Part shown: piece after piece, positions 3,001-19,314 of the stretch
How positions within the stretch are numbered: position 1 is the first letter of the stretch
Layout: each line of letters starts with the position of its first letter
Origin: Candidatus Omnitrophota bacterium
GTDB taxonomy: Bacteria; Omnitrophota; Gorgyraeia; Gygaellales; Profunditerraquicolaceae
Direction: 5' to 3'
Length of the DNA stretch: 64,000 bases
NCBI GenBank assembly: GCA_041651115.1
Contig: JBAZJY010000002.1
Coordinates: 73,846-137,845, forward strand
Made by a program: the position numbers and the translations under genes
The notes under the pieces: model-generated
The model's input: only the letters and a program-made list of their open reading frames with translations
Told to the model about the DNA's origin: nothing
Database searches by the model: none

Positions 3001-6000
3001 GAAGATTTCCGCGAGAGCATGGGTTTAATTGTCGGCACGCATGAAAACGGAGCATATAGAATTACCAGGCTGGTTCCGATCACTGAGTTTGAAAAAGGCA
3101 GCAGCTATGATTTCCTTCTTCCCGGAAAGGCCCAGGTGATCCGGATCATTGAGAATGAACTGCGGAGCGGTGAACAGATCCTGGGTGATTACCATAATCA
3201 TTCTTATGAAAGACTGCGCAGTTTTCAGAAACCGGGCCCCAGTTCAGAGGATGCCATGGGAGGCGGATACTTGAATATTATCGGATACGAGAATAAGATC
3301 GCAAATAACCGCCTGAACATAGTTTTAGAGCCCGAATTGGACTTGGATAAGATAACCATGGATGAGCTGGCGAATTTTGACCCGTCTAATTCGCGGGTTA
3401 TCCTCTATCCTTACATATCGCCGAACAGGGGATTGGAGAGAAGGATTATCGAGCTGGATAAGATCTATTTGGATGCCTTGACAAAAGAAGTTAATTCCGG
3501 AGCGACCAGCTCGCCGATGAAATTGGGGGATCTTAAGAAATTAGCTCTCGGCGCAATGATGGCGTTTTATTTGTCCTGCTTGAGCTTCCATAACGTTAAT
3601 GCCCAAGTCAATGACACGCCGGCAATTGATTATTATTTTACCGTTAGCTCGCAGCTCCAGGATTCCATAAACAACTTAGTAAAGAAAGAGTTTTATGACA
3701 TAGTTTCGTTATCGCCAGACCAGATAAAGCAGCTGTTGACGGCAAAAGACCTTACGGAATTTAAGTCGGTGGCTGAATCTATGTTAGAGAAGAAGGGGTT
3801 AAGCCTGCCTTATTATGCACCGGAGGATATTGCGGATTTAGTATCTTCCTCAAAAACAGGGGACAGCGATATCCAGAGGCTAATCAGGATCAAAGGCGGC
3901 CTGAATTATCTCAGTCAGCATCATCCCTGGGTATTCAGGTTCGTTATGTTTAATGCCCAAAGAATAATTTTTGATTTTACTTATAATAAAAGCGGGGGAT
4001 ATGAAAATGAGCGCAAAATATATTACGGCGTTTTGCTTGACAACTATGCCATTGAAGAAATCGCCGCATTTCTGGCGCATGAGGCCGCGCATAGCTTCTT
4101 GGAGCTGATGGGAATGCCTGTAGGCGGGGCCGCAGGAGAGAGCGTTGCGATATATTTAGGTGATCTGATATTAAAAAACGCAAATATCAGGTTAGGCGCA
4201 GATAAATTTATCCTTAATTTGTCTTCTGAAGCGGCAAACAGAGGTCATTGGGGGCCGTGGCAAGATGCATATTATGAAGAAACCTATAATAAGGCCGGCA
4301 TTGAATTAAGGGATCATCTCAGGCACTTGGAATTTATTACTAAGCTGCCCGCAACATTGTTGGATATCATCATATTTGGCTCAAAAGACCAGTGGGAAAT
4401 TTATCCGGAATACAGGCGGCTGGGGCTCGATGCGCTTGGGGAGATATTAGAATCTGTTGAGTCGCAGCCGGTTGAAACCAAGGAATTCTTCGGAGTTTTA
4501 TTTGCCAACTATTTTGATGAATTGTGGAACGCGGGGGACGGGCTATATCGTGAATTGATACGCGCATATTTATTAAAAAACACAAACTACATCCCTGCGG
4601 CAAAACAACGGTTGATATTAGATGAGGTCGGCAATGCTCAAGTGGATGCCAGCTCGCCGGTGAAGGCTGCAGGGTTCTTGAAGACGACCGCGCTGTTATC
4701 AATGCTGTTTTTCCTGCCGGTGTTTGTCCAGCAGTCATTCAGCCAGAGCGCAAGGGCGCCTACCAATGTAGAGATGACGATATATATGTCGCGCGTAAAG
4801 GACCTTTCCGAGGCCAAAGACTTAGGCAGTTTATTAAAGATCATCAAAGACGATAAGGCCCATGCATTGTTTAAGATGCAGGCGATGGATGCCGTGCAGC
4901 GCATGCCTATGGTAATGAATAAGGCCTCGGACCTGATGAGGGCACTTGGCGCGATTGAAGACATTTATAATGATCCGCAGACCAGCAATCTAATAAACGG
5001 GAATACAGTCAGCTGGCTGGAACAGATCATGAAGAAATATGAAATTATCTGGTGGGGGGGTAAGGATACTCTCTTTGCGCCGATAGATGTTTATAAAGGC
5101 ACAGCAGAACTGATCCAGCAGATCGCTGCCGATCACCCGGATTTTATCAAGCCCGGGTCGTTGGCAGAATTCATCAGCAGGCAGCGCCAACCGCAGCTGC
5201 TTTATAAGCCGTGGCCGCATTATCCGGTTTATCAAAATCCGCAGTTTATCGCCGGGGTGCAAAAATATAACGCCGACACGCGGGAATACTATTCCATTTC
5301 CATGGCTGTTTATGACCTGCTGAATCTGGCCGGGGTAGGCTTAAGCGATACGACTATCAGCCAGGCAACGGATTATATTATGCAGCAGCGGCAGGCCTTT
5401 GGCCAACGGGTATTCTTTGATAAAGAGACCACAGCCATATTCATTGTTACCGAAGGAGAGGAATCTCAAAAGGACGTTGATCTGTTACGGGGCATTGCGC
5501 TGGACGCAGGAGTCTTGGAAGAAAATATCCATATTTTCCGGGGCATGAAAGATAAGCGTAAGCTCGCAACGCTTATTTCCGAGAGCACCGGGCCGCTAAC
5601 CATCGCCACAAATATGGAAGGGAATGAAGCGTCCTGGCGCATGGATCCCGAAGGCAATCAGCTTTCTTATGCAGAGTTTGCCAAATGGCTTGAGGCACGA
5701 AGTATTTTAACCAATGTAAATATTATTCTTGACGGCTGCCTGTCGACCAACCTTACAGAAGGGATGATCAATCTGCTTTACGATCCTTATGATCCTGCTT
5801 CCAAAGCAGCAGCTATCAGAAGGGGCCTGCCGACCGTAGTCTCAACTTCGGACGATAACCACCCTAGTTATGCGGACCAGCAAGGCCAGAGTTTCTTTTA
5901 TTCCGAGTTAAGCCTTATGCCGCGCGTTCCCGGAAAGCCGCTCCTGGGCAGGCAGATATTAGATACCGAGATTGCCGGATATAAACGGATGTTCGTTCTT

Positions 6001-9000
6001 GAAAATCCGCGCGTTTCGGTTTTTCTGCCGCTGGAGGGCAGGGAAGAGTTAGACCATATTTTCGGCGGCAAGACAAAATGGGGAAAAGTCTGGTTTTTCC
6101 CGATCGGCCAGGCTGAACCTAAGACCGATACGCTTAAGCCGGATGGCCTGCTGGCGCTCGGGCCAAAAGAAACCGTTACCAGCTCGCCGCTGAAGGCCGG
6201 CGGGTTCTTTAAAACAGCTGCGTTGGTATCAATGTTGGTGCTCCTGCCGGCATTGGGCCAGCCATTATTCGGCCAGCAAGCTGAACTTTTATCTACCGAT
6301 GCGCAAGGCCGCGCAGAGTTTAAGAACAATGTCTCTCTTACTTTGGCATCTTTAGGGGGAGCCGTTGATATTACGGCAGCTGCCGAGGCTGATCGCCCCC
6401 GTACATACAATTACAACCCTCAAACCGGGATGCTGGAGATTACATATGCTATTCCGGGATATGTCAATGTCAGCAAACCCAACGACGTAGTTACAATAAC
6501 CGCGCGAAAAATTGTTCCGCAGTTTGCCCTTATTACCGATGAATCGGGAAGCCAGGATAAAGAAGCCATGACCGAGCAGGGCCGTCAGTTCGCAAGAGTC
6601 CTGCAGTTTATCCAGAATAGATATCCTGGCATGCGCAATATCCGAATAAGCACGGTTACCGATCCCAACCCTCAAGTTTCCTCTTATTCCGGTGCAGCCG
6701 ATGCGCAAGATTATTTTAATCAGCCGGTATTCCAGAGCGACCCGTTACTGGGAGCCACGCATTTCGTAGAGGCAGTAAGAAATACAATCAAATCTTTTAA
6801 TAATAGCGCTCCGGGGATAATTTTAGCAGCCTCTTCAGATTTTGAACAGGATCCTTTGGCCAGAGGCAGTGATCCTGTAAAACCGGAAGATTTGAGAGCT
6901 CCTTTTTATGAAATGGCCGGTGAATTAGAGGAGCTTAATACCCACCTTTTTATTGCAACGCAAAATGCTGACAGTCAAAAGAACATCCGAATATTGACGG
7001 ATGAGTATCTTAAAAAGTGCGAGGCGGAGGGAAAGGCGCCGTATATTCATTACCAGGTTGTAGGCGCGGAAAATATGAGCGCCGCATTTACCTCTTTTAT
7101 CGCTGAATCTGATTTTCCTGAACAAATTCCTTTACCTACGCAGAATAAGGATATCAAGATAGATTTTCTTTCTTCTGGCCCCGGCGGGCAAGACGCCTCC
7201 GGAGCGGTCAACCCGCAACAGGGGTCCCTTGCCGGTAGTATAAAAATAAACGGAAGCACTTTAGTCCTAAAAGATTTATTTAAGGGATTAGGGGATGTTG
7301 ATTCCGCGCAGGTCGTTTTTTCGTATGAACCCCTGATAGTTCCGCTACCATTAACGCACACCCCGCAGGATATTTACCTGGTGAAAGATTATAGCGGCAG
7401 CGTCAGGGATATAAAGTGGAATGCTTTCCTGAAAGACTTACTTATTAAATTAAAAGAGAGAGGAGACCGGATTATCGGCGGGACATTCTTTGGCCCGGAA
7501 GTCATCTCGGTAGCCGGTTTTGATGGCGTTTTAAGCGCCGTGGAATCGCCCAGGGGTGGGTATACCCATGGCTGGGCGGCCTTAAAAAAGATCTTCCAGC
7601 AAATGGACGATATGCCCGATAATGCGACATTATATTTTATTTCAGACGGCGTATTTAATGACCGGGATTTTACTGACGGGGAGAAAGAACGGGTCAAGGA
7701 AAAATTCCTGCAGAAATTAAAGGATAAAAACATACGCTTTGTCTGGATCGCGCCCGAAAAGGCTTCTCCGGGCGTAACCAAATTTTTGTCAAATGCCGTT
7801 AATAACGGAAAAGCAGCGGACAATCTCCGGGCTTCTTTAAGCCCCTATGCCACGCTGTTGACATTTGCCGTTGCTACCAACCCGGACAGGGGAGTGGTGT
7901 TTTATAAAAACGAAGATACGATTTCCGGCCTGGCCGAAGCCACGGGGCTTTATAGCAGGAAAGTTATCGATGTCCCGGAAAAATTCCCCATAAGGCAGGT
8001 GCAAATATTGTTTCAGGATGAGGGGAAAGAAAAGCGGATAGTAGTAGATATGCAAGACACAGAAGAAAAGCCCGGTTCCAGCTCGCCGATCACCGAGTTA
8101 TCCGGCCAGCTGCCTGAAGAAGAAGCCGCGCAGCTGGAAATACCATTTGTATACCCCCAGAATGCGCCTACCGTCATCTTGCCGCTGAAACTCAACGGCG
8201 CTGATAAAAAAGAATTAATGGAATATAAGGGTACCCTGGAGATTTTAAAAGCGAAATTATCAAATTACCTTGAACATCCCGAATATCTTAAAGACAAAGG
8301 AAAGCTCGAAAGCGTTTTGCCTATCGCCAAAGAGGCAATCAGCGAATTTTTGGGAAAAGTAGCTGCTGCCGATAAGTTAAGGCCGGTTTATGATACCTTT
8401 GCCCGGGCGGATTTTGATGCTCCTATAAACACAGATTTTGGCGACCAGTTTAATGGTTTTGTTGCTTATGTTCAAATGGGGATAAACCAACTTGATTCGC
8501 AAGGATCCATTTCATCGCGTTTAATTTTGAGCCTGATAACTACGCTTACCCAAACCATTGAATTTTTAGAGAACGCAATTTTAATCTTTGAAAAACTCAC
8601 TGGCCCCTCAAAGAGCGAATTTAAAACCAAGCTGTCAAACGGAGGATCGGGAAGCCCTTCCGTCCTCATATTGGATCTCAATGACCTTTTAAGCAGTGTC
8701 GGCTCAGAGATCAGCTCGCCGGTAAAAACAGAAGCTACGAATGATAAGGGCGGTATTGATTTTAGGGCGTTGCCGGTTGTGACGCAGCCGGTTTTAGGGA
8801 CGGTTCTCAGCCAAGGAGAAAAACGTCCCCAAATGGGGACGCTTTTACCTTGGACTGAGAACCGTCCCTCTCTTGACCAGGAATTACAGCAGATTAGGAA
8901 GATGATTGATTCCGGAATTGTTCCCTCAAGCGAGAGAATCAAGGAATATGCGCAGACTTGCGGCAGCCAGGACATAGATAAAATATTATCTTGTATCGCG

Positions 9001-9159
9001 GATATCTTAAGACTGGAAGAAGAGCGGGTTGAGGAAACCGATCCGCAGTTAAGACAGTTGGTCATGGTGCTTGAATCGGATAAGCCGGCAAATGAGATGC
9101 AGCTGGCAGTAGCCGCGATCTCGTTTTCCGCGAAAGATCCGGTTCTGGTGAAACCTTAA
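1..9159 (+). CDS. Giant multidomain protein, 5'-partial (frame open from nt 1; >3,050 aa). It has two GHKL/HATPase_c ATPase modules, an HExxH zincin-like motif, a vWA domain with a DxSGS MIDAS motif, and SSP-punctuated modules with internal signal-peptide-like segments.
   Basis: Frame 1 is open from nt 1 to the TAA at 9157-9159; the ORF track starts it at an in-frame GTG at 94. HATPase_c N/G1/G2 boxes are visible twice (NLIGNAIDAV..DNGGGIS..GGTGRGLALCKE at ~1290-1540; NLITNAVDEA..GTGLGLALIEEIVKEHGG at ~2440-2770). HEAAH lies at 4078-4092, DYSGSV at 7387-7401, and SSP junctions at 1667, 2864, 3506, 4649, 6179, 8078 and 8712. Confidence 0.7.
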   Translation, partial: NEYASELIRELIIPKLTREINTSKKYASLRQVYYSLILAQWFKAKFNSGSGKYENLINRKNLSGLTSQIFWDKQFYFQQYQDSFNKGEYNLKENRSTPFGQTIRTYMSGGLTLGNEISSAIQAQTIASKRSSSPLANKTFNQAAEIDANGNIRIAEGSVSAQEENIAILHALINQGPKAFLSGEKGDENRDRVIGIAEKFDFYVEELLDEEDEEDFFEYVLGLEKLLKLNPRVHQEPSEMFVHLDNLSHNLGHINNLFNIAIISFNKVDEVELRTGQMNMYLAEYQAIRKLLSWDGLNKINPEAVSDLFTDTIRYVVGSRALFKEIGDILNSNRDMIREKEEGLYSLIDGYLERARLVDSECTHNLGILKRLKEEIYEPGKKEPINIGVSVYEAIEPYLHNGHRVKFITDFRDQGMMVQANALRLSYTWTNLIGNAIDAVNKFKRTPEGRGVDGILTVSVRPVHTENTDIMEVSFQDNGGGISKAMSENDRLFLRGESDKQGGTGRGLALCKEAAEFHGGTISVEPRRVSEFDDRPEKTEDPKRGARFVIRLPVVASSPVAISEIAQKDSDKITREDKAAMLNHARQMDFYVQRIEEENDSQNLKAYATALAILEKEGVKPAEGVYAGKQIDFNIVSHDIGHMIIEMTVLLGILELVPVENDPAGYKKRALELWAKIQAWQAILDWEKTLGIAPGILSRMTEEIGSDLDSVGNFYNEVKDYFNRHVDSEIVADYSAAVDLRRGEREIIDFLLSELKNNISDPSRAAAIDEKFIINKLVWSYEKLKSANLNFQLRLRAENLQTYGNPLRVYSIFKNLITNAVDEAAGLATGSKFVKTPSGKFTEVRLTDEQKRTVEENKTIIIANKNIKEGDKDYAEFSIENIAYITPEMNAELYGGRKLFAKGQTGKESGTGLGLALIEEIVKEHGGSVDYYIKDIPGDDTLKKIQFVVKLPAVSSSPVSGDKVILSTAGTTISLSSGDQARIVSEFRRLANQITTEFSEEDFRESMGLIVGTHENGAYRITRLVPITEFEKGSSYDFLLPGKAQVIRIIENELRSGEQILGDYHNHSYERLRSFQKPGPSSEDAMGGGYLNIIGYENKIANNRLNIVLEPELDLDKITMDELANFDPSNSRVILYPYISPNRGLERRIIELDKIYLDALTKEVNSGATSSPMKLGDLKKLALGAMMAFYLSCLSFHNVNAQVNDTPAIDYYFTVSSQLQDSINNLVKKEFYDIVSLSPDQIKQLLTAKDLTEFKSVAESMLEKKGLSLPYYAPEDIADLVSSSKTGDSDIQRLIRIKGGLNYLSQHHPWVFRFVMFNAQRIIFDFTYNKSGGYENERKIYYGVLLDNYAIEEIAAFLAHEAAHSFLELMGMPVGGAAGESVAIYLGDLILKNANIRLGADKFILNLSSEAANRGHWGPWQDAYYEETYNKAGIELRDHLRHLEFITKLPATLLDIIIFGSKDQWEIYPEYRRLGLDALGEILESVESQPVETKEFFGVLFANYFDELWNAGDGLYRELIRAYLLKNTNYIPAAKQRLILDEVGNAQVDASSPVKAAGFLKTTALLSMLFFLPVFVQQSFSQSARAPTNVEMTIYMSRVKDLSEAKDLGSLLKIIKDDKAHALFKMQAMDAVQRMPMVMNKASDLMRALGAIEDIYNDPQTSNLINGNTVSWLEQIMKKYEIIWWGGKDTLFAPIDVYKGTAELIQQIAADHPDFIKPGSLAEFISRQRQPQLLYKPWPHYPVYQNPQFIAGVQKYNADTREYYSISMAVYDLLNLAGVGLSDTTISQATDYIMQQRQAFGQRVFFDKETTAIFIVTEGEESQKDVDLLRGIALDAGVLEENIHIFRGMKDKRKLATLISESTGPLTIATNMEGNEASWRMDPEGNQLSYAEFAKWLEARSILTNVNIILDGCLSTNLTEGMINLLYDPYDPASKAAAIRRGLPTVVSTSDDNHPSYADQQGQSFFYSELSLMPRVPGKPLLGRQILDTEIAGYKRMFVLENPRVSVFLPLEGREELDHIFGGKTKWGKVWFFPIGQAEPKTDTLKPDGLLALGPKETVTSSPLKAGGFFKTAALVSMLVLLPALGQPLFGQQAELLSTDAQGRAEFKNNVSLTLASLGGAVDITAAAEADRPRTYNYNPQTGMLEITYAIPGYVNVSKPNDVVTITARKIVPQFALITDESGSQDKEAMTEQGRQFARVLQFIQNRYPGMRNIRISTVTDPNPQVSSYSGAADAQDYFNQPVFQSDPLLGATHFVEAVRNTIKSFNNSAPGIILAASSDFEQDPLARGSDPVKPEDLRAPFYEMAGELEELNTHLFIATQNADSQKNIRILTDEYLKKCEAEGKAPYIHYQVVGAENMSAAFTSFIAESDFPEQIPLPTQNKDIKIDFLSSGPGGQDASGAVNPQQGSLAGSIKINGSTLVLKDLFKGLGDVDSAQVVFSYEPLIVPLPLTHTPQDIYLVKDYSGSVRDIKWNAFLKDLLIKLKERGDRIIGGTFFGPEVISVAGFDGVLSAVESPRGGYTHGWAALKKIFQQMDDMPDNATLYFISDGVFNDRDFTDGEKERVKEKFLQKLKDKNIRFVWIAPEKASPGVTKFLSNAVNNGKAADNLRASLSPYATLLTFAVATNPDRGVVFYKNEDTISGLAEATGLYSRKVIDVPEKFPIRQVQILFQDEGKEKRIVVDMQDTEEKPGSSSPITELSGQLPEEEAAQLEIPFVYPQNAPTVILPLKLNGADKKELMEYKGTLEILKAKLSNYLEHPEYLKDKGKLESVLPIAKEAISEFLGKVAAADKLRPVYDTFARADFDAPINTDFGDQFNGFVAYVQMGINQLDSQGSISSRLILSLITTLTQTIEFLENAILIFEKLTGPSKSEFKTKLSNGGSGSPSVLILDLNDLLSSVGSEISSPVKTEATNDKGGIDFRALPVVTQPVLGTVLSQGEKRPQMGTLLPWTENRPSLDQELQQIRKMIDSGIVPSSERIKEYAQTCGSQDIDKILSCIADILRLEEERVEETDPQLRQLVMVLESDKPANEMQLAVAAISFSAKDPVLVKP

Positions 9160-10905: not shown

Positions 10906-12169
10906 GAACGGCAAGGTTATTGACCCGGCGCAAAATATCAACGGAGAAACCCTGGATATCCTGGTGCAGTCCGGAAAAATAGCCAAGCTCGCTAAAAATA
11001 TTAAGGCAGATGCCGATAAAGTAATTGATGCCTCGGGAAAGATCGTCATGCCTGGTATCGTAGATATGCACGTGCATTTAAGGGAGCCGGGCAGGGAAGA
11101 TAAAGAAACCGTGGCCAGCGCTACAGCCGCGGCATTAAAGGGCGGGGTAACGTCGGTGCTGGCAATGCCGAATACCCAGCCGGCAATGGACACTAAAGAA
11201 AGCCTGATATTATTAAAGAAGATTGTTAGGGCTTCCGGCCTTTGTAATGTTTTTATCTGCGCTGCGATCACCAAGGAAAGGCAGGGCAAAGAATTAACCG
11301 ATATCCCAGGGCTTAATAAGTCAGGCGCGATCGCCATATCAGACGACGGCGCGTCAGTAGATGACGAAAACTTGTTTTTGGCAGCGATGAAAAAGGCAAA
11401 GGCCGCCGGTATCCCGGTGATCTGCCACTCCGAAGATAAAAAACTTTCCGGTAACGGTGTAGTTAACCGGGGGATCATCTCCACTAAACTTGGCTTGCGC
11501 GGAATTTCCAGAGAGTCGGAATATACAAGGGTTGAGCGCGATATTAAACTGGCAGAAAAGGCAAAGGCAACAATCCACATTGCTCATGTCAGCTGCCGGG
11601 AGTCAGTGGAGCTCATCAAGCAGGCGAAAAAAAGAGGGGTCAGGGTAACCGCGGAAACTGCCCCGCATTATTTTTCTTTGGACCAGGACGCGCTAGCTGG
11701 CTACGATACAAATCTTAAAATGAACCCGCCGCTTAGAGAGGCCGCGGATGTGGAGGCAATAAAGCAGGGGTTGAAGAGCGGGGTGATTGATGCGATCGCC
11801 TCTGACCATGCCCCGCATACAGAGAATGAAAAGGACATTGAATTTGACCGCGCTGAATTCGGGGTGATCGGCCTGGAAACCGAACTTGCCGCCGGCATTA
11901 CCGAGCTGGTGCAAAAAGGAGTCCTGGATTGGCCGGGCCTGGTAAAAAAATTCTGCCTTAATCCGGCAAAAATATTAGGTATAGACAGGGGTACTTTACA
12001 AATCGGCAAACCGGCAGATATCATGGTTGTTTCGCCCAAAGATGAATGGATAGTGCAAAAGCATGGACTCGCCTCCAAATCCAAGAACTCCGCGTTCATC
12101 GGCAAAAAACTAACCGGCGTTGCCGAGTATACTGTCTGCAACGGAAATATCGCATATCAAAGGCTGTAA
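10886..12169 (+). CDS. pyrC: Dihydroorotase.
   Basis: DMHVHLREPG and SDHAPH metal-binding motifs. The ATG at 10886 (MQKILIKNGKVIDP) overlaps the pyrB end; the track ORF begins earlier at an alternative start. Confidence 0.88.
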   Translation: MQKILIKNGKVIDPAQNINGETLDILVQSGKIAKLAKNIKADADKVIDASGKIVMPGIVDMHVHLREPGREDKETVASATAAALKGGVTSVLAMPNTQPAMDTKESLILLKKIVRASGLCNVFICAAITKERQGKELTDIPGLNKSGAIAISDDGASVDDENLFLAAMKKAKAAGIPVICHSEDKKLSGNGVVNRGIISTKLGLRGISRESEYTRVERDIKLAEKAKATIHIAHVSCRESVELIKQAKKRGVRVTAETAPHYFSLDQDALAGYDTNLKMNPPLREAADVEAIKQGLKSGVIDAIASDHAPHTENEKDIEFDRAEFGVIGLETELAAGITELVQKGVLDWPGLVKKFCLNPAKILGIDRGTLQIGKPADIMVVSPKDEWIVQKHGLASKSKNSAFIGKKLTGVAEYTVCNGNIAYQRL

Positions 12170-12174
12170 AAGCA

Positions 12175-12203
12175 TTGAATATCGCCCACAATAAAGCTAT
12201 AAT
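12175..12203 (+). promoter_or_regulatory. Near-consensus promoter (TTGAAT-17-TATAAT) ending 8 nt before the EndoQ ATG, implying a leaderless or near-leaderless transcript.
   Basis: ttgaat at 12175-12180, a 17-nt spacer, tataat at 12198-12203, and ATG at 12212. Confidence 0.45.
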
Positions 12204-12211
12204 ACTATTCT

Positions 12212-13453
12212 ATGGAATTTATCGCTGATTTCCACATTCACTCAAGATACTCGCGCGCCACATCCAAGGATATGGATGTCAAGCATCTGGCGGAATGGGC
12301 AAAATTAAAGGGCATCACCCTGATGGGCACGGGTGATTTTACCCATCATTTGTGGCTTGAAGAGCTAAGAAATAACTTAGAAGACCTTGGCAATGGCCTG
12401 TTCAAATATAATGATATACATTTTATCCTCACCAGCGAGATCAGCAGTATCTATTCCAAAAAGGGGAAGACCTACCGCATCCATAATATGGTCTTCAGCC
12501 CTTCGCTTAAGACTACGGATAAGATCAATTATAAGCTTTCACAGTGCGGCAACCTTGCTTCTGACGGCAGGCCGATACTGGGCTTAGACGCGGCAGAGCT
12601 TGCGCGTATTGTCTTCGATATTGACGAGAACTGCATGGTCGTTCCCGGCCATATCTGGACACCATGGTTTTCCCTCTTCGGGTCAATGTCCGGCTTTGAC
12701 CGCATTGAAGATTGCTTTGAAGACCAGGCGCCGAAGATCTTCGCTTTGGAAACCGGCCTCTCCAGCGACCCGGCAATGAACTGGCGTTTAAGCGCGCTGG
12801 ATAAGTTCACCTTGATCAGCAATTCCGACAGCCACAGCCCGTCAAAGATCGGCAGAGAAGCAAATGTATTTGACTGTGATCTGGATTATAAAACGATCCG
12901 GGAAGTGCTTAAGACCAAGGACCAAAAGAGGTTTTTATACACGATTGAATTTTTCCCGGAAGAGGGCAAATACCATTATGACGGCCACCGTAACTGCGAT
13001 ATCAGATGGTCACCTAAAGAAACAAAACAGCATAACGGGAAATGCCCTAAGTGCAACAAGCCGGTTACTGTGGGGGTGATGAATCGCGTTGACCAGCTGG
13101 CAGACCGGCCGGAAGGATATAAGCCGTCCAATAGCATTCCCTTTAAGAATCTTATCCCCTTTGAGGAGATCATTGCCGAGGCAAAGGGCGTGGCGTCCAC
13201 TTCTGTCAGCGTAGAGCGGGACTATCATAGCCTGCTTGCCAAATTTGGCACAGAATTCAATATTCTGCTGCGCGCATCAGAAGATGAACTGCGCAAGGGC
13301 CTGCCGTCAAAAGTCGCGGAAGGAGTTTTGCGGGTGCGCAAGGGCAAAGTGAATATTAACCCCGGGTTTGACGGAGAATACGGCAAAGTCGCCATTTTTG
13401 GCGAAAAAGATAAGCCGACAGCAGAAGGTGAAAAGCAATTAAGCTTGTTTTAG
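12212..13453 (+). CDS. Endonuclease Q (EndoQ) homolog. It has a PHP-like N-terminal domain and a C-terminal zinc finger.
   Basis: The N-terminus FIADFHIHSRYSRATSKDMDVKHLAEWAKLKGITLMGTGD closely resembles the archaeal EndoQ N-terminus. GKCPKCNKP is a Zn-finger near the C-terminus. Confidence 0.7.
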   Translation: MEFIADFHIHSRYSRATSKDMDVKHLAEWAKLKGITLMGTGDFTHHLWLEELRNNLEDLGNGLFKYNDIHFILTSEISSIYSKKGKTYRIHNMVFSPSLKTTDKINYKLSQCGNLASDGRPILGLDAAELARIVFDIDENCMVVPGHIWTPWFSLFGSMSGFDRIEDCFEDQAPKIFALETGLSSDPAMNWRLSALDKFTLISNSDSHSPSKIGREANVFDCDLDYKTIREVLKTKDQKRFLYTIEFFPEEGKYHYDGHRNCDIRWSPKETKQHNGKCPKCNKPVTVGVMNRVDQLADRPEGYKPSNSIPFKNLIPFEEIIAEAKGVASTSVSVERDYHSLLAKFGTEFNILLRASEDELRKGLPSKVAEGVLRVRKGKVNINPGFDGEYGKVAIFGEKDKPTAEGEKQLSLF

Positions 13454-13458
13454 TATAT

Positions 13459-13530
13459 GCGCCTGTGGCCCAACGGATAGGGCACTAGCCTCCGGAGCTG
13501 GTGGTACAGGTTCGATTCCTGTCAGGCGCA
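13459..13530 (+). tRNA. tRNA-Arg (anticodon CCG).
   Basis: Cloverleaf folded by hand: acceptor GCGCCTG/CAGGCGC, anticodon loop CTCCGGA, T-loop TTCGATT. No encoded CCA. Confidence 0.85.
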
Positions 13531-13541
13531 CTTTTATAACA

Positions 13542-13623
13542 GCGGGTCCTGTCTGCTGATTTACCCCGCTGCGCTCAAGCTTGCGCTTTCGCTCGCGGGG
13601 TCCCCCAATCAGCAGCCACCCGC
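13542..13623. repeat. Copy A of a structured ~85-nt intergenic repeat (long imperfect hairpin; central AAGCTTGCGCTTTCG loop). It is MITE-like or a small structured RNA.
   Basis: About 85% identical to 37638-37731. Internal arms pair as ctgctgatt/aatcagcag, accccg/cggggt and gcgggt/acccgc. It lies immediately 3' of tRNA-Arg. Confidence 0.6.
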
Positions 13624-13652
13624 GCTAACGAATAAGTGTTTATGAGAATGCC

Positions 13653-14105
13653 ATGACTAAGAAAATCATAGGGGTAATTGGCGGAAGACAGTGTAATAAG
13701 GAAGTGGAGCAAACAGCCATAAAATTAGGCAAAAAATTGGCTAAAGTGGCTGATTTACTTGTTTGTGGCGGTTTAAGTGGAGTAATGGAGGCGGTAAGCA
13801 AGGGTTTTAAGGCTGCAGGAGGCACAACCATAGGTATTCTACCGGGTTACCACAAGACCGAAGCTAATTCTTTTGTTGATATAGTCATTCCTACGGGAAT
13901 GGGATTAGCAAGAAATGTGCTGGTGGTCAAGGCAGCCGATGTTGTAGTAGCCTTGCCCGGAGAAGCAGGTACGCTTTCTGAAATCGCCTATTGCCTGCAA
14001 TTCGGCGTTCCCGTAGTAAGTTTTAATTCCTGGGATATCCCCGGCGTGATCAAGGCCAAAACTATTGAGCAAACAATCAAAGAAGTCAGGAAAAAGTTAA
14101 AATGA
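13653..14105 (+). CDS. LOG / TIGR00725-family Rossmann-fold protein (predicted nucleotide 5'-monophosphate nucleosidase-like).
   Basis: GGxxGxME core ([12 protein letters not shown]) and PGExGTLSE motif; 150 aa. Confidence 0.6.
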
Positions 14106-15724
14106 AAAAGAAAGTGATTATCTTAGGTGGCGGCCCGAACCGGATCGGCCAGGGCATTGAATTTGATTACTGCTGCTGCCACGCTTCCTATGCGCTTGAG
14201 GAAGAAGGCATTGAAAGTATTATGGTCAACTGTAATCCCGAGACCGTATCCACGGATTACGATACCTCTGACCGGCTGTATTTTGAACCGATAACAATAG
14301 AAGACGTGATGAACATTGTTGAATTGGAAAAGCCGATCGGCTTGATCGTGCAATTCGGCGGCCAGACCCCGCTTAACCTGGCAGTCGGCCTGCGCAAGTT
14401 GGGCGTGAATATCCTCGGTACCAGCGCAGACAGCATAGACATTGCCGAAGACCGTAAACGTTTTAAAGAAATGCTCCACAAGCTAAGCCTGTTGCAGCCG
14501 GATAACGGCACGGCGTTTAATTTCAAAGAGGCCGAAGCAGCGGCAAAGCGGATCGGTTATCCGGTGCTGGTGCGGCCTTCCTATGTGCTCGGCGGCAGGG
14601 CAATGGAGATAGTTTATGACGAATCTATGCTGGAAAAATTCATTGCCGAGGCGGCGCGGGTATCGGGCGAACATCCGGTATTGATCGATAAGTTCCTTGA
14701 AGATGCCATTGAAGTTGACGTGGACTTGATCGGCGACGGAGAAACTTTTGTCATCGGCGGGATCATGGAGCATATTGAAGAAGCGGGGATCCACTCCGGA
14801 GATTCGGCAATGGCCTTGCCGACATTTACCCTCTCCGGCGGGATTTTAAATAAAGTCAGGCAGGCAACATACGAAATGGCAAAAGAACTTAAGGTCAGAG
14901 GCCTGATGAATGTCCAGTATGCGGTTAAAGACGATAAAGTCTATGTGCTGGAGGTTAACCCGCGGGCATCGCGCACCGTTCCGTTCGTGTCTAAGGCGAT
15001 CGGCGTGCCACTGGCAAAACTGGCGACTAAAGTAATGATGGGGAAAAAACTAAAAGACTTCAAGTTTACCAAAGAAATTATCCCGGATTACTTTTCCGTT
15101 AAAGAATCGGTTTTCCCCTTCAGCCGCTTCTCCGGAGTAGATGTGATCCTGGGACCGGAAATGAAATCCACCGGAGAAGTAATGGGCATAGACAGTGATT
15201 TTGGCAGGGCGTATATCAAGAGCCAGTTGGCAGCCGGCCAGGATCTGCCGGTCAAGGGAAATGTTTTTATCTCGGTAAGAGACCGCGATAAGCGCGCGAT
15301 AGCTTTTATCGCTAAAAAACTACAAGACCTGGGATTCAAGATTCTTGCTACCTCCGGCACAGCTTCGGCGCTGGAGAAAAATGGCATTAAAGTCAAGGTC
15401 CTGCGTAAGATCGCCGAGGGCAGGCCGAATATATTGGATCTAATGAAAGACGGGAAGGTTCAGCTGGCGATCAACACGCCTTCAGGCAGGGTGCCGCGCC
15501 AGGATGAAGTGGCCATCCGTTCGCGCGTTATTCGTTACGGCATACCTTATACCACGACGATTTCCGGCGCCCAGGCAACTACAAATGGCATTGAGGCGCT
15601 GATGAAAAGGGGCCTGGATGTAAAGCCGCTGCAGGAATACCATAAAAAAATCAAAAGTCAAAAATCAAAAGTCAAAACAAGATGGCCTAAGGAAGATAAA
15701 AATGCCGGAACTTCCAGAAGTTGA
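14102..15724 (+). CDS. carB: Carbamoyl-phosphate synthase large subunit, C-terminal half (second ATP-grasp plus MGS-like domain). This is a split carB.
   Basis: Starts [28 protein letters not shown], which is the second repeat of CarB. An MGS-like domain (ILATSGTAS) sits at the C-terminus. The low-complexity tail overlaps fpg. Confidence 0.85.
15646..15673 (+). repeat. Tandem 14-bp duplication (AAAAATCAAAAGTC x2, 28 bp) in the carB 3' tail.
   Basis: Read directly. Removing one copy restores a TAA at 15688-15690 ahead of the fpg RBS. Confidence 0.6.
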
Positions 15725-16502
15725 GACAATAAAGAGGGAATTAGAACAGGTGTTGGCGGGTAAGAAGATCATCGACGTGATCGTCAATAACCCGAAGGTC
15801 ATCCGCGAGCCGAAGAAAGACGGTTTTGTCAAAGGCTTAAAAGGCGCCGGGATCAGGAATGTTTTAAGAAAAGCAAAGCTTTTGATCATTGAGCTTTCTA
15901 CCGGTAAATCCCTGGCCATTCATCTAAAAATGACCGGCCAGCTGATCTATCCGGGTAACGGCAAGTCCAGCAGGGTAAGCTTCAAGCTTTCCGACGGCAG
16001 ATTGCTGGATTTTAATGACCAGCGCCTGTTCGCGGAATTGCGGCTGGTTAATGACTGGCGCGCCTTAAAGTTCGTGCGGGAGTTGGGGCCTGAACCGTTT
16101 GATATTACCCGGGAACGTTTCAAGGCAATGCTTACCGATAAAAAAACAAAGATAAAGCCGCTGATCATGGACCAGCAATTCATTTCCGGTATCGGTAATC
16201 TGTATGCTGCCGAAGCGTTATTCAGGGCAAAGATAGATCCTTCGCGCCCGGCATGCAGCCTGAAAGATGCCGAAAAAGATTTGTTGTTTAAGGAAATAAA
16301 AGATACATTGAAAGAGGCGATAAAATACGGCGGCTCGTCCGTTGACCAATATGTGCGTTCAACGGGTAAGCCCGGCAATTACGCGAAATACCACCGGGTT
16401 TATGACCGCCTGGGCAAGCCTTGCCCAATATGTAAAACGCCGGTAAAGCGAATTGCCTTGGGTGGCAGGGGAACATATTTTTGCCCTAAATGCCAGAAAT
16501 AA
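15702..16502 (+). CDS. mutM: Formamidopyrimidine-DNA glycosylase.
   Basis: N-terminal MPELPEVE catalytic motif and a C-terminal zinc finger CPICKTP..CPKCQK. Confidence 0.9.
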
Positions 16503-16518
16503 CGGGAGCTAGCAGAAG

Positions 16519-17211
16519 ATGAAAAAACGTATTAAGATAAACGGAGTCATCATTTTTATCTGCGTCATCGCAATGATGCTTTTTCCTAATGTATTTTTGC
16601 GCATGAGCTTCAACAAGATAGATATTTTAACGGGCATACTAGGATTAGAGCTTATGTTTTTCGGGCTGCTGCTAAGGGTTTCCAGCCGCGGTTATAAATC
16701 CGAACTTTCCGTAGGGGGCAATAATCTTGTGCGCACCGGCCCATACTCGTTAGTAAGGAACCCGATGTACCTGGGTATTTGTTGCATTGCCCTCGGTATT
16801 ATCATGGTGCTATTCCAGTGGTGGACGCTGGCCGTATTCGGTATATTTTTTGCGTTGCGTTACCTTACCTTGATCCGGGTTGAAGAGAAAGGCCTTCTTG
16901 AAAAATTCGGACACCGTTACAGCGAATATCAGAAAGACGTGCCGCGGATATTGCCCAGGCTGAACACGCGGCTGAATAAGGACCTGCTGAATTGCCTGCC
17001 GTTAAAGCTGAGCTGGATAAAAAAAGAACTGAACAGCATTTTGATCATTGTCCCGGGGGTCTTAGGCATTGATATGTGGAAGAAATTCATATTATGCGAA
17101 AACGACCTCGCGCTGCCGTATTTTTTGATCCTTAGCTGGATAATCTGCGCGCTGATTGTCCTGGCAGCTGTTCTGGTAAAAAATTATGAAGGCTACCCAA
17201 AGCAAAAGTAA
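16519..17211 (+). CDS. Isoprenylcysteine carboxyl methyltransferase (ICMT) / phospholipid methyltransferase-family membrane protein.
   Basis: Multi-TM protein with the RTGPYSLVRNPMYLG family motif. Confidence 0.65.
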   Translation: MKKRIKINGVIIFICVIAMMLFPNVFLRMSFNKIDILTGILGLELMFFGLLLRVSSRGYKSELSVGGNNLVRTGPYSLVRNPMYLGICCIALGIIMVLFQWWTLAVFGIFFALRYLTLIRVEEKGLLEKFGHRYSEYQKDVPRILPRLNTRLNKDLLNCLPLKLSWIKKELNSILIIVPGVLGIDMWKKFILCENDLALPYFLILSWIICALIVLAAVLVKNYEGYPKQK

Positions 17212-17998
17212 GATCTTAAGCAATTTAAAAATATCCGGGAACTATTTTAAGCTCCAGGTTATCTGTCCTTGCGTTGCTGCTGCAGCTCGGCCCGGGCAGT
17301 TTGTGATGGTGCAGGTGAATAACGGCATTGAGCCGCTGCTGCGCCGGCCGCTGGGCGTGCATAGGCTTCCGGGGCAGAAAAAAAATATCGTAGAGCTGCT
17401 TTATGAAGTTGTGGGCAGGGGAACAGGTCTTCTTTCACGCAAAAAGCCAGGCGAAAGCATAGATATTATCGGCCCGCTGGGCAATGGCTTTGATTATGGG
17501 CCAGCCTACGGCCGGTACAGGCCGCAGGTTTTGGTAGCCGGGGGAATGGGGGTAGCGCCGTTAACTTTTCTTGCAGAAAAGTTAACGGAAGGCAAAAGGC
17601 AAAAGGCAAAAGGCAAAATTATAGTTCTGCTTGGGGCAAAGACCAAAGATCAGATTCTTTGTGAAAAAGAATTCAAAAAAATAGGTTGTGAAGTGAGGAT
17701 TGCTACCGATGATGGTTCGCGTGGATTTAAGGGCAGAGTTACCGATTTATTGAACCGCGAATTACGCACCACGGATTACGCACCGTGGACTATTTATGCC
17801 TGCGGGCCAGGGCCGATGTTAAGGGCAATATCCTGTTTGTCAAAAGACCGCAGCCTGCCTGCGCAGCTTTCTTTGGAAGCGCATATGAGCTGCGGCTTTG
17901 GCGCCTGTTTAGGCTGCGTGGTTAGTACTACCGGCGGATATAAAAGAGTATGTAAAGAAGGCCCGGTTTTTTCGGCCGAGGAAATTATCTGGGAATAA
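17186..17998 (+). CDS. pyrK: Dihydroorotate dehydrogenase electron-transfer subunit.
   Basis: FAD/NAD-binding fold with a C-terminal 2Fe-2S cysteine cluster CGFGACLGCVV. Confidence 0.85.
   Translation: MKATQSKSKILSNLKISGNYFKLQVICPCVAAAARPGQFVMVQVNNGIEPLLRRPLGVHRLPGQKKNIVELLYEVVGRGTGLLSRKKPGESIDIIGPLGNGFDYGPAYGRYRPQVLVAGGMGVAPLTFLAEKLTEGKRQKAKGKIIVLLGAKTKDQILCEKEFKKIGCEVRIATDDGSRGFKGRVTDLLNRELRTTDYAPWTIYACGPGPMLRAISCLSKDRSLPAQLSLEAHMSCGFGACLGCVVSTTGGYKRVCKEGPVFSAEEIIWE
17591..17618 (+). repeat. (GGCAAAA)x4 heptanucleotide tandem repeat inside pyrK.
   Basis: Read directly. It encodes KRQKAKGK in a linker that is longer than in typical PyrK. Confidence 0.8.
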
Positions 17999-18011
17999 AC
18001 TGGAGGGGCAC

Positions 18012-18371
18012 ATGACCCAAATAGCTTATATTCTTCTGGGTTTGGCTGCCGGGATCTTCGGCGGAATGTTCGGCATCGGCGGAGGCGCGATCCTCGTTCC
18101 TGCGCTGGTATACGTTTTCGGCCTGACGCAGCATCAGGCGCAAGGGACAACCCTGGCAGTAATGATTCCGCCGATCGGGCTGCTGGCGGCAATGCGTTAT
18201 TATTACGGCGGCAATGTAAAGCTGGGCATGGCAGGGTTTATTTGCGCTGGGTTTTTTATCGGCGGCCTGATCGGCGCCAACTTTGTGCAGGGCATATCTG
18301 CTCCACTGTTGAAAAAGCTATTCGGCACGTTCCTTCTGGTGGTGTCTTTGCATATGGTCATCGGAAAATAA
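18012..18371 (+). CDS. Half-size TSUP (TauE/SafE, DUF81) membrane protein with a single 4-TM repeat.
   Basis: GxGGG motif (FGIGGGAILVPAL); 119 aa, whereas canonical members are about 250 aa. Confidence 0.6.
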   Translation: MTQIAYILLGLAAGIFGGMFGIGGGAILVPALVYVFGLTQHQAQGTTLAVMIPPIGLLAAMRYYYGGNVKLGMAGFICAGFFIGGLIGANFVQGISAPLLKKLFGTFLLVVSLHMVIGK

Positions 18372-18372
18372 T

Positions 18373-19314
18373 ATGAAAACAAAAATTTCCGTTAATATCG
18401 GCAGGCTCAAATTAAAGAACCCGGTAATGGTTTCCTCCGGCACTTTCGGGTATGGGGAAGAATTCTCCGATTTTGTTGAGCTGAAAAAAATCGGGGCGAT
18501 CGTATCCAAGACCATCACTTTGAATCCGCGTAAAGGAAATCCTCCGCCGCGTACCTGCGAAACCCCGGGCGGCATGCTTAATTCCATTGGCCTGGAAAAT
18601 CCCGGGTTAAACGCATTTATCGGCGATAAACTGTCTGTTTTAGTTAAGACCGGAGCGCCGGTAATCGTGAGTATCGCCTCGGAATCCGGCATTGCTGAAT
18701 TTGTAAAATTGGCAGGATGCCTGGATAAGTTGAAAGAGGTTGCGGCAATAGAAGTAAATATATCCTGCCCGAACGTGCGAAGCGCAAAGCGTATGGCCAC
18801 CAGCGCTAAATTGATTTCGCAGGACCCCAAGGCAACCTATGAGACGATCAGGGCAATACGCAAAGTTACGGGAAAAACATTGATCGCTAAACTTTCGCCG
18901 AACGTTACCGATATTTCCGAGATTGCCCTTGCCAGTGAAGCGGCAGGCAGCGATGCAGTAAGCTTGATAAATACCTTGACCGGGATGAGTATTGACGTGG
19001 ATACGCGTAAGCCGAAGATCGCCTGCGTTACCGCAGGCTTGAGCGGCCCGGCGATCCGGCCGATTGCCGTAAGGATGGTCTGGGAGGTTTATCGCGCAAT
19101 AAAGCTACCGGTGATCGGCATGGGCGGCATTAACGATGTGAATAGCGCTTTAGAATTTCTCATTGCCGGAGCAAGCGCCGTGAGCATAGGCACGGCCAAT
19201 TTCATTAATCCCGGGGTAGCCGAAGAAATCATTTCCGGCCTCGGGCGATTTATGGTAAAAAATAAGATAACTGACATTAAGCAGCTTATCGGGAGCGTGA
19301 AGCTTGAAAAGTGA
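18373..19314 (+). CDS. pyrD: Dihydroorotate dehydrogenase catalytic subunit (class 1B).
   Basis: NPVMVSSGTFGYG N-terminus and TIM-barrel FMN motifs (GMGGI). Confidence 0.9.
   Translation: MKTKISVNIGRLKLKNPVMVSSGTFGYGEEFSDFVELKKIGAIVSKTITLNPRKGNPPPRTCETPGGMLNSIGLENPGLNAFIGDKLSVLVKTGAPVIVSIASESGIAEFVKLAGCLDKLKEVAAIEVNISCPNVRSAKRMATSAKLISQDPKATYETIRAIRKVTGKTLIAKLSPNVTDISEIALASEAAGSDAVSLINTLTGMSIDVDTRKPKIACVTAGLSGPAIRPIAVRMVWEVYRAIKLPVIGMGGINDVNSALEFLIAGASAVSIGTANFINPGVAEEIISGLGRFMVKNKITDIKQLIGSVKLEK

Follow-up and report, generated by a model that had tools for sequence, protein, structure and literature searches.

An A-rich heptanucleotide array at the 3' end of a split carB gene in Omnitrophota, probably a microsatellite with a drifting reading frame

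The window analyzed here is a 64,000-nucleotide stretch of an Omnitrophota metagenome-assembled genome, and the parts of the carB-fpg locus described below lie on its + strand. The open reading frame for carB (14102..15724) overlaps an upstream SLOG/TIGR00725 gene by 4 nt (ATGA) at its 5' end. It encodes a protein of 540 amino acids with a complete set of pre-ATP-grasp, ATP-grasp, and MGS-like allosteric domains (Pfam PF25596, 2.5e-49; PF02786, 1.1e-36; PF02142, 5e-23). Residues 2-517 align with residues 559-1072 of the 1073 in Escherichia coli CarB (phmmer against 1bxr_A, E = 1.9e-252), which terminates about one residue past query position 517, and the domains are collinear with E. coli CarB 559-1073. 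No N-terminal carB half was detected within the window, where a tblastn search with the C-terminal half matches only itself. Alignment and domain content indicate that the gene is the C-terminal half of a split carB.

The conserved CarB core ends in LQEYH. These residues are encoded at 15629..15643 and form an anchor conserved in 120 orthologues. All sequence 3' of these codons is variable tail, which in this genome is a lysine-rich stretch of 26 amino acids (15644..15721) that translation and orthologue comparison place outside the conserved fold. Because the alignment runs through to the end of E. coli CarB, the repeat that we describe in the tail touches only sequence beyond the fold. The possibility of a frameshifted pseudogene was rejected, as the conserved domains are intact to LQEYH and the altered residues lie past the end of E. 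coli CarB. In the NCBI record, carB seemingly has no protein accession, whereas the genes around it all have accessions of the MFA51565xx series (MFA5156505 for the upstream gene and MFA5156506 for fpg). Thus, the annotation pipeline may have called carB a pseudogene.

The gene that follows is fpg/mutM (15702..16502; 266 amino acids), identified by Pfam (PF01149, PF06831, and PF06827) and by the NCBI name of an identical protein, MFA5156506.1. It starts with MPELPEVE, ends in CPKCQK, and has the H2TH, the zinc finger, and the MPELPEV N-terminus (with the catalytic Pro exposed once Met is removed) expected of Fpg/MutM, which fixes its start at 15702. The carB stop codon, TGA at 15722-15724, lies within the GTTGA of fpg codons Val7-Glu8, so that the two genes overlap by 23 nt (15702..15724). 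A Shine-Dalgarno-like AAGGAAG for fpg (15689..15695) is found 6 nt before the ATG, inside the carB frame in the present allele, and no promoter-like or + strand terminator-like site was found between the two genes. A second long overlap in the window, of 26 nt, occurs between PEMT and pyrK, and long overlaps thus appear normal in this stretch of DNA.

Within the tail-encoding sequence, AAAAATCAAAAGTC, which consists of the heptamers AAAAATC and AAAAGTC, occurs at 15646..15659 and again, letter for letter, at 15660..15673, both by direct reading and with TRF. A partial third copy (AAAA, 15674..15677) follows, and the periodicity ends at C 15678. TRF recovers 2.3 copies at period 14 (100% matches, score 64) and 4.6 copies at period 7 over the same array (88%); the 14-nt period arises because AAAAATC and AAAAGTC alternate. 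Perfect tandem arrays with at least 16 matched positions are found only three times in the window and were absent from all 60 first-order Markov simulations of it, and the carB array is far beyond chance. With a short unit repeated head to tail above chance expectation, it has the makings of a microsatellite. Such complete identity (100%) between the two 14-mers is compatible with either a recent event or a recent homogenisation.

The initial annotation had described this feature as a 14-bp tandem duplication of the slippage type that frameshifted the end of carB, and the repeat itself and its consequences for the frame were borne out. By computation, removal of one copy ends carB at TAA 15688..15690, with a second TAA in that frame at 15697..15699; with two copies the frame ends 23 nt inside fpg, and the alignment to E. 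coli CarB confines the change to a part of the C-terminus beyond the conserved enzyme. TAA 15688..15690 also ends carB when one heptamer is added. With no copy of the 14-mer, with three, or with one heptamer less, carB would continue in frame into fpg, a consequence that the initial annotation did not mention, nor did it mention that carB is a half-gene. Copy number sets the frame of the last residues.

An assembly error, which had also been proposed, is not supported as the source of the second copy. Two copies are present in all three assemblies, which were made with different software and k: the JGI/NCBI contig that holds the window, an ENA MEGAHIT k141 contig that differs from it by one SNP and no indel over 7623 nt, and a Logan k31 contig (SRR8542065) that is 100% identical over 15648-17617. 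This agreement makes an assembly error very unlikely. Moreover, the 32-nt array is far shorter than both k=141 and Illumina reads, so an error of repeat collapse or expansion is impossible, and a 14-nt insertion is not a known error mode of sequencing platforms. The sole hint of an artefact is that the Logan contig begins 2 nt inside the array, where the assembly graph is not simple, and we regard an artefactual second copy, missing from the DNA of the organism, as extremely improbable. The ends of this contig were also considered as a sign of length heterogeneity: the start at 15648 fits a co-existing k-mer with at least three copies, and the end at 17617, at the pyrK array, is one base off the corresponding prediction. 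We make no such claim.

Comparison with relatives places the tail and the overlap in a different light. The initial annotation had taken the lysine-rich tail for a product of the frameshift, and K/R-rich tails turn out to be usual in this group: they span 0-43 amino acids in 120 Omnitrophota orthologues, the median being 14, and Lys and Arg together account for a mean fraction of 0.46. In most of the loci listed outside Omnitrophota the tails span 0-11 amino acids, and a few more distant loci (e.g., L025 and L049) bear tails of 39-50. Nor is the overlap peculiar to the duplication. The same 23-nt carB/fpg overlap, with the same TGA and without the duplication, occurs in at least three loci (L168/L169, L170, and L171/L172, with the proteins borne by six, one, and four contigs, respectively), and the tail signature indicates it in P0050, P0067, and P0114 as well. 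In L083, the second-closest relative among the matches listed (88%), carB overlaps fpg by 31 nt in the other frame, and overlaps of 13-29 nt with yjbQ are found in L082, L084, and L086. Judging by tail signature, carB stops inside fpg in about 16 of the 120 orthologues and inside yjbQ in about 29-42. The best identity to related loci among the matches listed is 83-84% (metagenome and genome contigs), and no strain-level relative is among them; the best amino-acid identity, from the protein search, is 89%.

Several relatives also carry arrays at the homologous site, and the duplication is not a novelty of this genome. Arrays with a 14-nt period and other units are found in L084 (AAAAGCCAAAAGTA, 3.2 copies, 96%) and L176 (AAAATTCAAAAATC, 2.4 copies, 100%), GAAAGCC occurs 4.3 times in L170, a 10-mer three times in L005, and heptamer doublets in L003, L004, and L082. 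P0003/L167 and the window have ATCAAGAGTCAAAAATC (KxIKSQKS) in common, which spans copy 1 and reaches into the beginning of copy 2. Copy number differs at this site, from 2.3 in the window and 2.4 in L176 to 3.2 in L084, with three heptamer-like units in L167; no array was found there in L083, L168, or L171. Since the units differ in sequence between relatives, a common origin of the arrays, in place of repeated independent emergence, is a presumption. L082 and L176 come from "contig_N" assemblies, and carB is split into four ORFs in L176; their A-rich tails may therefore contain homopolymer errors. Orthologues sharing the long tail had been named in the initial annotation as an observation that would refute its reading. 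The relatives do share a long tail rich in K, an identical overlap, and an array of this type, but not the exact sequence.

These comparisons bear on the idea that the second copy is a recent gain. On that account, a one-copy ancestor of the same lineage ended carB at TAA 15688-15690, and slippage then added 14 bp and about 16 residues, newly creating an overlap with fpg that is tolerated at the C-terminal end. The perfect identity of the two copies agrees with this, as do the cycling of the frame with unit number, the position of the tail beyond the conserved core, and the two TAA stops of the one-copy frame just before the Shine-Dalgarno sequence and ATG of fpg. The second TAA lies in AAGATAAAAATG, which by eye resembles AAAAGATAAAAATATG of L089, where the TAA is the carB stop codon; the one-copy frame may thus look "ancestral" at one anchor too. 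The identical 14-mers and the tidy pair of stops equally count against a long-standing array. On the other hand, relatives at 60-81% identity either already have at least two copies with a 14-nt period (L084 and L176) or share the junction of copies 1 and 2 (L167), and three verified loci have the overlap geometry without the duplication. Exact look-up found neither the one-copy protein (524 amino acids) nor the +7-nt protein (531 amino acids) among about 15 billion proteins, a weak negative, given that a protein differing anywhere else would escape such a look-up, and the 90% cluster of the 540-residue protein has one member.

Further against a recent gain, the one-copy frame would have joined carB in frame to the yjbQ ATG in an ancestor that contained yjbQ, and the lost stop could equally be explained by a difference of about 5 nt between TGG and GATAA relative to L084 and by the absence of yjbQ. 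A possible remnant of the yjbQ start is ATGG at 15682..15685, a match too short for statistics, whose TGG encodes Trp in the two-copy frame; the tails of yjbQ-containing P0002 and P0084 end in KWKK* and KWKR*. We attempted to name a single event that removed the ancestral stop (array expansion, the indel of about 5 nt, or loss of yjbQ) and set this aside, as the matches span only 4-13 nt. Overall, we consider a recent gain from a one-copy ancestor rather unlikely.

We instead favor, as the probable explanation, that in a clade of Omnitrophota the 3' end of carB (the C-terminal half-gene) is formed by a small A-rich heptanucleotide microsatellite, of which the array is the current state; on this view the repeat reflects the normal turnover of microsatellites, and the change of frame does no damage. 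The units are of the type NNCAAAA/AAAARNC. As the array sits past LQEYH, it should be under little constraint at the protein level, and whichever of the three frames is used, its A-rich units are read mainly as Lys, Ser, Gln, and Val/Ile. Slipped-strand gain and loss of units would therefore keep altering the length and frame of the tail between lineages, along with small indels of other kinds and the retention or loss of yjbQ. In each lineage carB would run to the first stop of its frame, and this stop commonly lies within the 5' part of the gene that follows. The present frame, ending at the TGA within fpg codons 7-8, would be one such outcome, and several relatives end likewise without this repeat. 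The two genes are predicted to be co-transcribed, with fpg using a Shine-Dalgarno sequence and ATG of its own and its translation probably coupled to that of carB. From these patterns we infer the slippage mechanism, the near-neutrality of the tail, translational coupling, and the loss of yjbQ in this lineage.

The non-triplet unit and the position of the array immediately upstream of a repair gene also raise the question of regulation. Reversible unit changes could move the carB stop before fpg, inside it, or into an in-frame fusion, three frames giving three different junctions, and so tune the level of Fpg as a heritable switch of mutation rate. The k=31 Logan contig starts exactly where a k-mer of at least three copies would branch the graph and ends at the pyrK array, and heptanucleotide coding repeats drive phase variation of neuO (PMC13001214). 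However, the array has only 2.3 14-mers, or 4.6 imperfect heptamers, and is far shorter than proven phase-variable tracts (3-53 units in neuO; PMC13001214), the protein look-up found no alternative allele, and fpg retains a Shine-Dalgarno sequence and ATG of its own whichever allele is present. The junction RNA is less structured than shuffled sequences (z = +1.9; minimum free energy -8.8 kcal/mol), has equal minimum free energy in both alleles, and forms only a weak 5-bp pairing (GGAAG/CUUCC). Two housekeeping genes, pyrK and folC, have similar arrays in their loops; frame switching there would presumably be deleterious, and the arrays therefore look like a mutational by-product. A regulatory contingency locus is thus very doubtful: the heptamers are few and imperfect, no variants were found in the look-up, and only the non-conserved tail is affected. 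The unstructured RNA with the same energy in both alleles likewise led us to reject a structural role for the junction. Programmed ribosomal frameshifting was also dismissed, given that the RNA folds worse than shuffles and the alternative product is not conserved among orthologues.

Heptamer arrays are pervasive in the loops of PyrK and FolC from Omnitrophota. They have about 4.3 copies and fall into length classes that differ by three units, and their unit sequences are specific to lineages and yet perfect. The same AGGCAAA array is present in PyrK proteins at only 60% identity, and the same units recur at unrelated loci (IPNPKSQ and HKVTRSQG).

We tentatively suggest that the carB array may be one member of a lineage-wide pattern in Omnitrophota, in which heptanucleotide (sometimes octanucleotide) arrays of about 4.3 copies occupy housekeeping genes. 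Loops would keep only three-unit steps (the +7-aa and +8-aa classes), while gene ends would keep any number, so that C-terminal frames and overlaps drift; in the boldest form of this proposal, unit changes would tune fpg. Perfect arrays maintained over deep divergence, together with shared units, would point to concerted evolution or active generation of repeats, and not to passive decay. A literature search on tandem repeats in Omnitrophota yielded nothing relevant, and the pattern is apparently undescribed as far as we searched. If true, it would matter more than the carB locus and would offer a clear case in nature of non-triplet microsatellites that evolve in concert, filtered by the reading frame, within an uncultured phylum. 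The finding at carB is itself minor and illustrates that, with a microsatellite at the end of a gene, the place of the stop codon and the extent of gene overlap are free to drift. Annotation should describe an intact split carB whose variable tail overlaps fpg, and neither a frameshifted pseudogene nor an assembly error to fix.

In bacterial operons, the stop of an upstream gene can fall at or after the start of the downstream gene, often in overlaps of 1 or 4 nt, with translational coupling between the two. The carB/fpg pair resembles such coupled overlaps in having no promoter or terminator between the genes and a Shine-Dalgarno sequence belonging to fpg, which suggests coupling here too, although its 23 nt exceed the common lengths. 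Upstream of hmw1A and hmw2A in Haemophilus influenzae are 7-bp tandem repeats that are long, non-coding, and variable, and that modulate expression. The carB array is similar in that heptamers lie just upstream of a start codon, where copy number could affect the downstream gene, but it is short and coding.

Separate genes for halves of carbamoyl-phosphate synthetase are known from Aquifex aeolicus, where CPS.A and CPS.B encode a split enzyme (PMC6022934, citing Ahuja et al. 2001). The arrangement is comparable to that in Omnitrophota, with the large subunit as two half-size genes, of which ours is the second (E. coli 559-1072). The Omnitrophota half-gene differs in belonging to another phylum and in its variable K/R-rich tail, and the window does not contain a partner half.

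A heptanucleotide repeat within an ORF is also found in neuO of the E. coli K1 phage CUS-3 (AAGACTC), which has 3-53 units at the 5' end, a demonstrated ON/OFF switch, and measured length variants (PMC13001214). Both repeats are translatable in three frames, and in both copy number modulo 3 sets the downstream frame. In contrast, the carB array, with its 4.6 imperfect units, sits at the very 3' end of the gene, affects only a non-conserved tail, and has no observed length variants.

A 2007 survey of prokaryotic long simple sequence repeats (SSRs), as summarised in PMC4679880, gives heptanucleotides as the most abundant class among units of 5-11 nt in most genomes and ascribes such repeats to polymerase slippage. 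These repeats and the carB array are alike in their head-to-tail heptamers, few copies, probable origin by slipped-strand mispairing, and occurrence in free-living, non-pathogenic bacteria. The survey also reported that the units most often located inside genes are those with a length that is a multiple of three (PMC4679880). Unlike this trend, the heptamer arrays of Omnitrophota lie inside coding DNA, at the 3' end of carB and in the loops of PyrK and FolC.

The 3' end of carB carries a 14-bp unit twice in tandem on the forward strand, with copy 1 (AAAAATCAAAAGTC) at 15646-15659 and an identical copy 2 (AAAAATCAAAAGTC) at 15660-15673, followed by AAAA. TRF reports an array at 15646 with a period of 14 (2.3 copies, 100% matches); at a period of 7 the same array has 4.6 copies and only 88% matches, because the heptamers AAAAATC and AAAAGTC alternate. 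It is one of three perfect tandem arrays of such strength in the 64-kb window, whereas 60 Markov simulations of the window produced none. The repeat is therefore real and not a product of chance, which upholds the duplication described in the initial annotation, and it is a genuine slippage-type array. The carB open reading frame (14102-15724, forward) ends at TGA 15722-15724 and overlaps fpg, which starts at ATG 15702 (MPELPEVE), by 23 nt. Computed frames bear out the claim that copy number determines the frame of the last CarB residues: with a single 14-mer the stop moves to TAA 15688, as it does with one extra heptamer, and carB and fpg become fused in frame when the 14-mer is absent or present three times, or when one heptamer is missing.

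The 540-aa carB product has pre-ATP-grasp, ATP-grasp and MGS-like domains according to a domain search, and its residues 2-517 align with residues 559-1072 of the 1073-residue E. coli CarB; it follows that carB is split here and that this gene encodes the C-terminal half. No N-terminal half was found within the 64-kb window. At its start (14102-14105), carB shares ATGA with the stop of the upstream TIGR00725/SLOG gene. Some orthologues within the Omnitrophota are unsplit and include the oligomerisation domain PF02787 (proteins P0003, P0004 and P0007; 894-937 aa, partial), and split CPSase genes also occur in Aquifex aeolicus (PMC6022934). LQEYH marks the end of the conserved core; the repeat therefore alters only residues past the fold, and it does not damage carB. 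Identical neighbour proteins carry consecutive NCBI accessions (MFA5156504, endoQ-like; MFA5156505, TIGR00725; MFA5156506, Fpg; MFA5156507, ICMT; MFA5156508, PyrK), and no NCBI source is listed for the 540-aa CarB half among the identical-protein matches. It apparently lacks a protein record in the public annotation, possibly as a result of the gene having been called a pseudogene.

Assembly error, which had been offered as one source of the second copy, is contradicted by three assemblies that all hold two copies. The window is identical to the 579-kb JGI/NCBI contig, as judged by protein identities; the ENA MEGAHIT k141 contig (487 kb) differs from window positions 11102-18724 by one SNP and no indels; and a Logan contig from SRR8542065 (L175) matches 15648-17617 at 100%, with both copies present minus 2 nt at the contig end. 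At 32 nt, the array is far below k=141. Neither the one-copy nor the +7-nt protein, both hypothetical, was present among about 15 billion sequences, and the 540-aa protein is alone in its 90% cluster. The Logan contig (k=31) begins 2 nt into the carB array and stops 1 nt short of the end of an array in pyrK. These ends at tandem arrays suggest that the assembly graph branches there, whether because of length heterogeneity, stutter or differences between strains; the start is consistent with a co-existing k-mer with at least three copies, and the end misses the simple prediction by one base.

The lysine-rich tail and the 23-nt overlap had also been ascribed to the duplication. Among the 120 Omnitrophota CarB orthologues listed (78-89% identical), the tail after LQEYH spans 0-43 aa (median 14; at least 26 aa in 12) and averages 46% Lys+Arg. 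A Lys-rich tail is therefore the norm in this family and not a product of this frameshift. Most loci outside the Omnitrophota have tails of 0-11 aa that are not K-rich, and a few more distant ones, for example L025 and L049, have tails of 39-50 aa. Gene calls and DNA show the identical 23-nt fpg overlap, with carB stopping at the TGA within GTTGA, in related loci that lack the 14-bp duplication: L168/L169 (tail ARTARS, with the fpg ATG inside a carB His codon), L170 (tail ...HAGITRS) and L171/L172 (tail CATAAAAAAAATGCC). By tail signature, P0050, P0067 and P0114 belong to the same group. At L083 (88%, second-closest among the matches listed) the overlap with fpg is 31 nt in the other frame, a signature that recurs in seven further tails of the 120. 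Where a yjbQ gene separates carB from fpg, carB overlaps yjbQ by 13-29 nt (L082 at 89%, L084, L086, L167, L003-L005). What survives of the initial annotation is thus a slippage-type array whose copy number sets the frame; an assembly error, and a tail and overlap specific to the duplication, do not.

Such arrays are also present in other genomes. The homologous position is occupied by AAAAGCCAAAAGTA (3.2 copies, 96%) in L084, by AAAATTCAAAAATC (2.4 copies, 100%) in L176, by 4.3 copies of GAAAGCC in L170 and by three copies of a 10-mer in L005, and heptamer doublets occur in L003, L004 and L082. L167, which encodes P0003, contains ATCAAGAGTCAAAAATC, matching the window across the boundary between copy 1 and copy 2, and both encode the peptide KxIKSQKS. 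In L176 (ERZ25039515 'contig_117200', 1-1514), carB lies in four short open reading frames broken by frameshifts, a pattern that points to a long-read assembly prone to errors. L082 (ERZ25039473 'contig_151021', protein P0002, closest among the matches listed) follows the same naming style, so the A-runs in both tails may hold errors and are read with caution. On the simplest reading, an old and unstable heptamer microsatellite would sit at the carB 3' end, its unit sequence and unit number shifting from lineage to lineage, and its A-rich units would yield Lys-rich peptides whatever the frame.

A yjbQ gene (PF01894, 130-138 aa) lies between carB and fpg in the closest relatives listed (L082, L084, L086, L167, L176, L003-L005) and is absent from that position in the window, L083, L089, L168, L170 and L171. 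Just 5' of fpg, at 15674-15701, ATGG...AAGATAA resembles the yjbQ 5' end ATGGAAAAGATAA, so the junction may be a deletion scar. The two-copy frame may be the older one: in it TGG (15683-85) encodes Trp, as it does in P0002 and P0084 (tails ..KWKK*/..KWKR*), where that TGG is part of the yjbQ start (A/G)TGG. Equally, the one-copy frame may have come first, as it holds TAA 15688 and TAA 15697, the latter within AAGATAAAAATG, which is similar to the carB stop region of L089. Between the TGG and AAGATAAAAATG anchors, the window, lacking yjbQ, differs from L084 by ~5 nt. A change of array units, a ~5-nt indel or yjbQ loss could each alone have shifted the stop into fpg. The anchor matches are short, so both orders are offered as inference.

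No promoter-like or forward-strand terminator-like sites were found between carB and fpg, and the fpg Shine-Dalgarno AAGGAAG is retained 6 nt before ATG. The junction RNA is predicted to be less structured than shuffled controls, with equal energy in both alleles. We infer that carB and fpg are co-transcribed with coupled translation and that the CarB tail is near neutral. The sole recurrent predicted pairing, a weak 5-bp one between GGAAG of the Shine-Dalgarno (15691-95) and CUUCC in fpg codons 4-5 (15711-15), occurs in one-copy and two-copy versions alike.

Names of the matching proteins place the window in an Omnitrophota MAG, and its operon reads pyrR-pyrB-pyrC-endoQ-like-SLOG-carB(C)-fpg-PEMT/ICMT-pyrK-...-pyrD. 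A second long overlap (26 nt, 17186-17211) lies 1.5 kb downstream of carB/fpg, between pyrK (17186-17998) and the gene (16519-17211) for a membrane methyltransferase of the PEMT/ICMT family. The endonuclease Q-family gene (12212-13453, MJ0043_C domain) sits inside this pyrimidine operon, flanked by pyrC and the SLOG gene; its 826-aa orthologue in L171 (1-737) shows faint intein/LAGLIDADG matches and may carry an intein. Elsewhere in the window, the translation of a 3021-aa open reading frame with a GTG start (94-9159), inspected by eye, shows histidine-kinase-like ATPase motifs in two segments, together with hydrophobic stretches and several recurring 'SSPV/SSPL' linkers.

Both of the window's remaining perfect arrays are intragenic heptamers: AAGGCAA x4.3 in pyrK (17589-17618; loop EGKRQKAKGK) and AGGTGTC x4.4 in folC (61752-63119; array 62033-62063; GVRCQVSGVRQ). 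Across 120 Omnitrophota orthologues the PyrK loop comes in length classes of 17, 24, 25 and 31 residues, the increments being 7 aa, from three heptamers, or 8 aa, from three octamers; its peptides repeat every 7 aa, with units specific to the lineage (GKRQKAK, VKSQKSK, IPNPKSQ, VQSSKFK). At the corresponding loop, FolC orthologues carry other 7-aa-periodic peptides (NPKSQIPNHKS, GARRKAQGARR, TPNSKLQTPNS...) and, in some, an 8-aa-periodic one (SHKVTRSQGHK). At offset 7, identity runs of at least three residues were counted in 70 of 120 PyrK and 47 of 120 FolC proteins, as against 3-10/120 at offsets 5, 6, 9 and 10. At the PyrK loop L176 also has a perfect array, AGGCAAA x4.1, in proteins only 60% identical, together with two further arrays in pyrK; the T. 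maritima homologue 4ylf is 5 residues shorter at this loop. Different genomes share units such as IPNPKSQ and HKVTRSQG among their carB tails, PyrK and FolC. A literature search found no tandem-repeat reports for Omnitrophota, and these lineage-wide heptamer arrays in coding loops are a more interesting lead than the carB array, which is of low interest in itself.

The carB array is a microsatellite at a gene end, a known kind. According to PMC4679880, heptanucleotides are the commonest longer-unit SSR class in most prokaryotic genomes, and the heptanucleotide coding repeat of neuO is in frame only at copy numbers divisible by three (PMC13001214).
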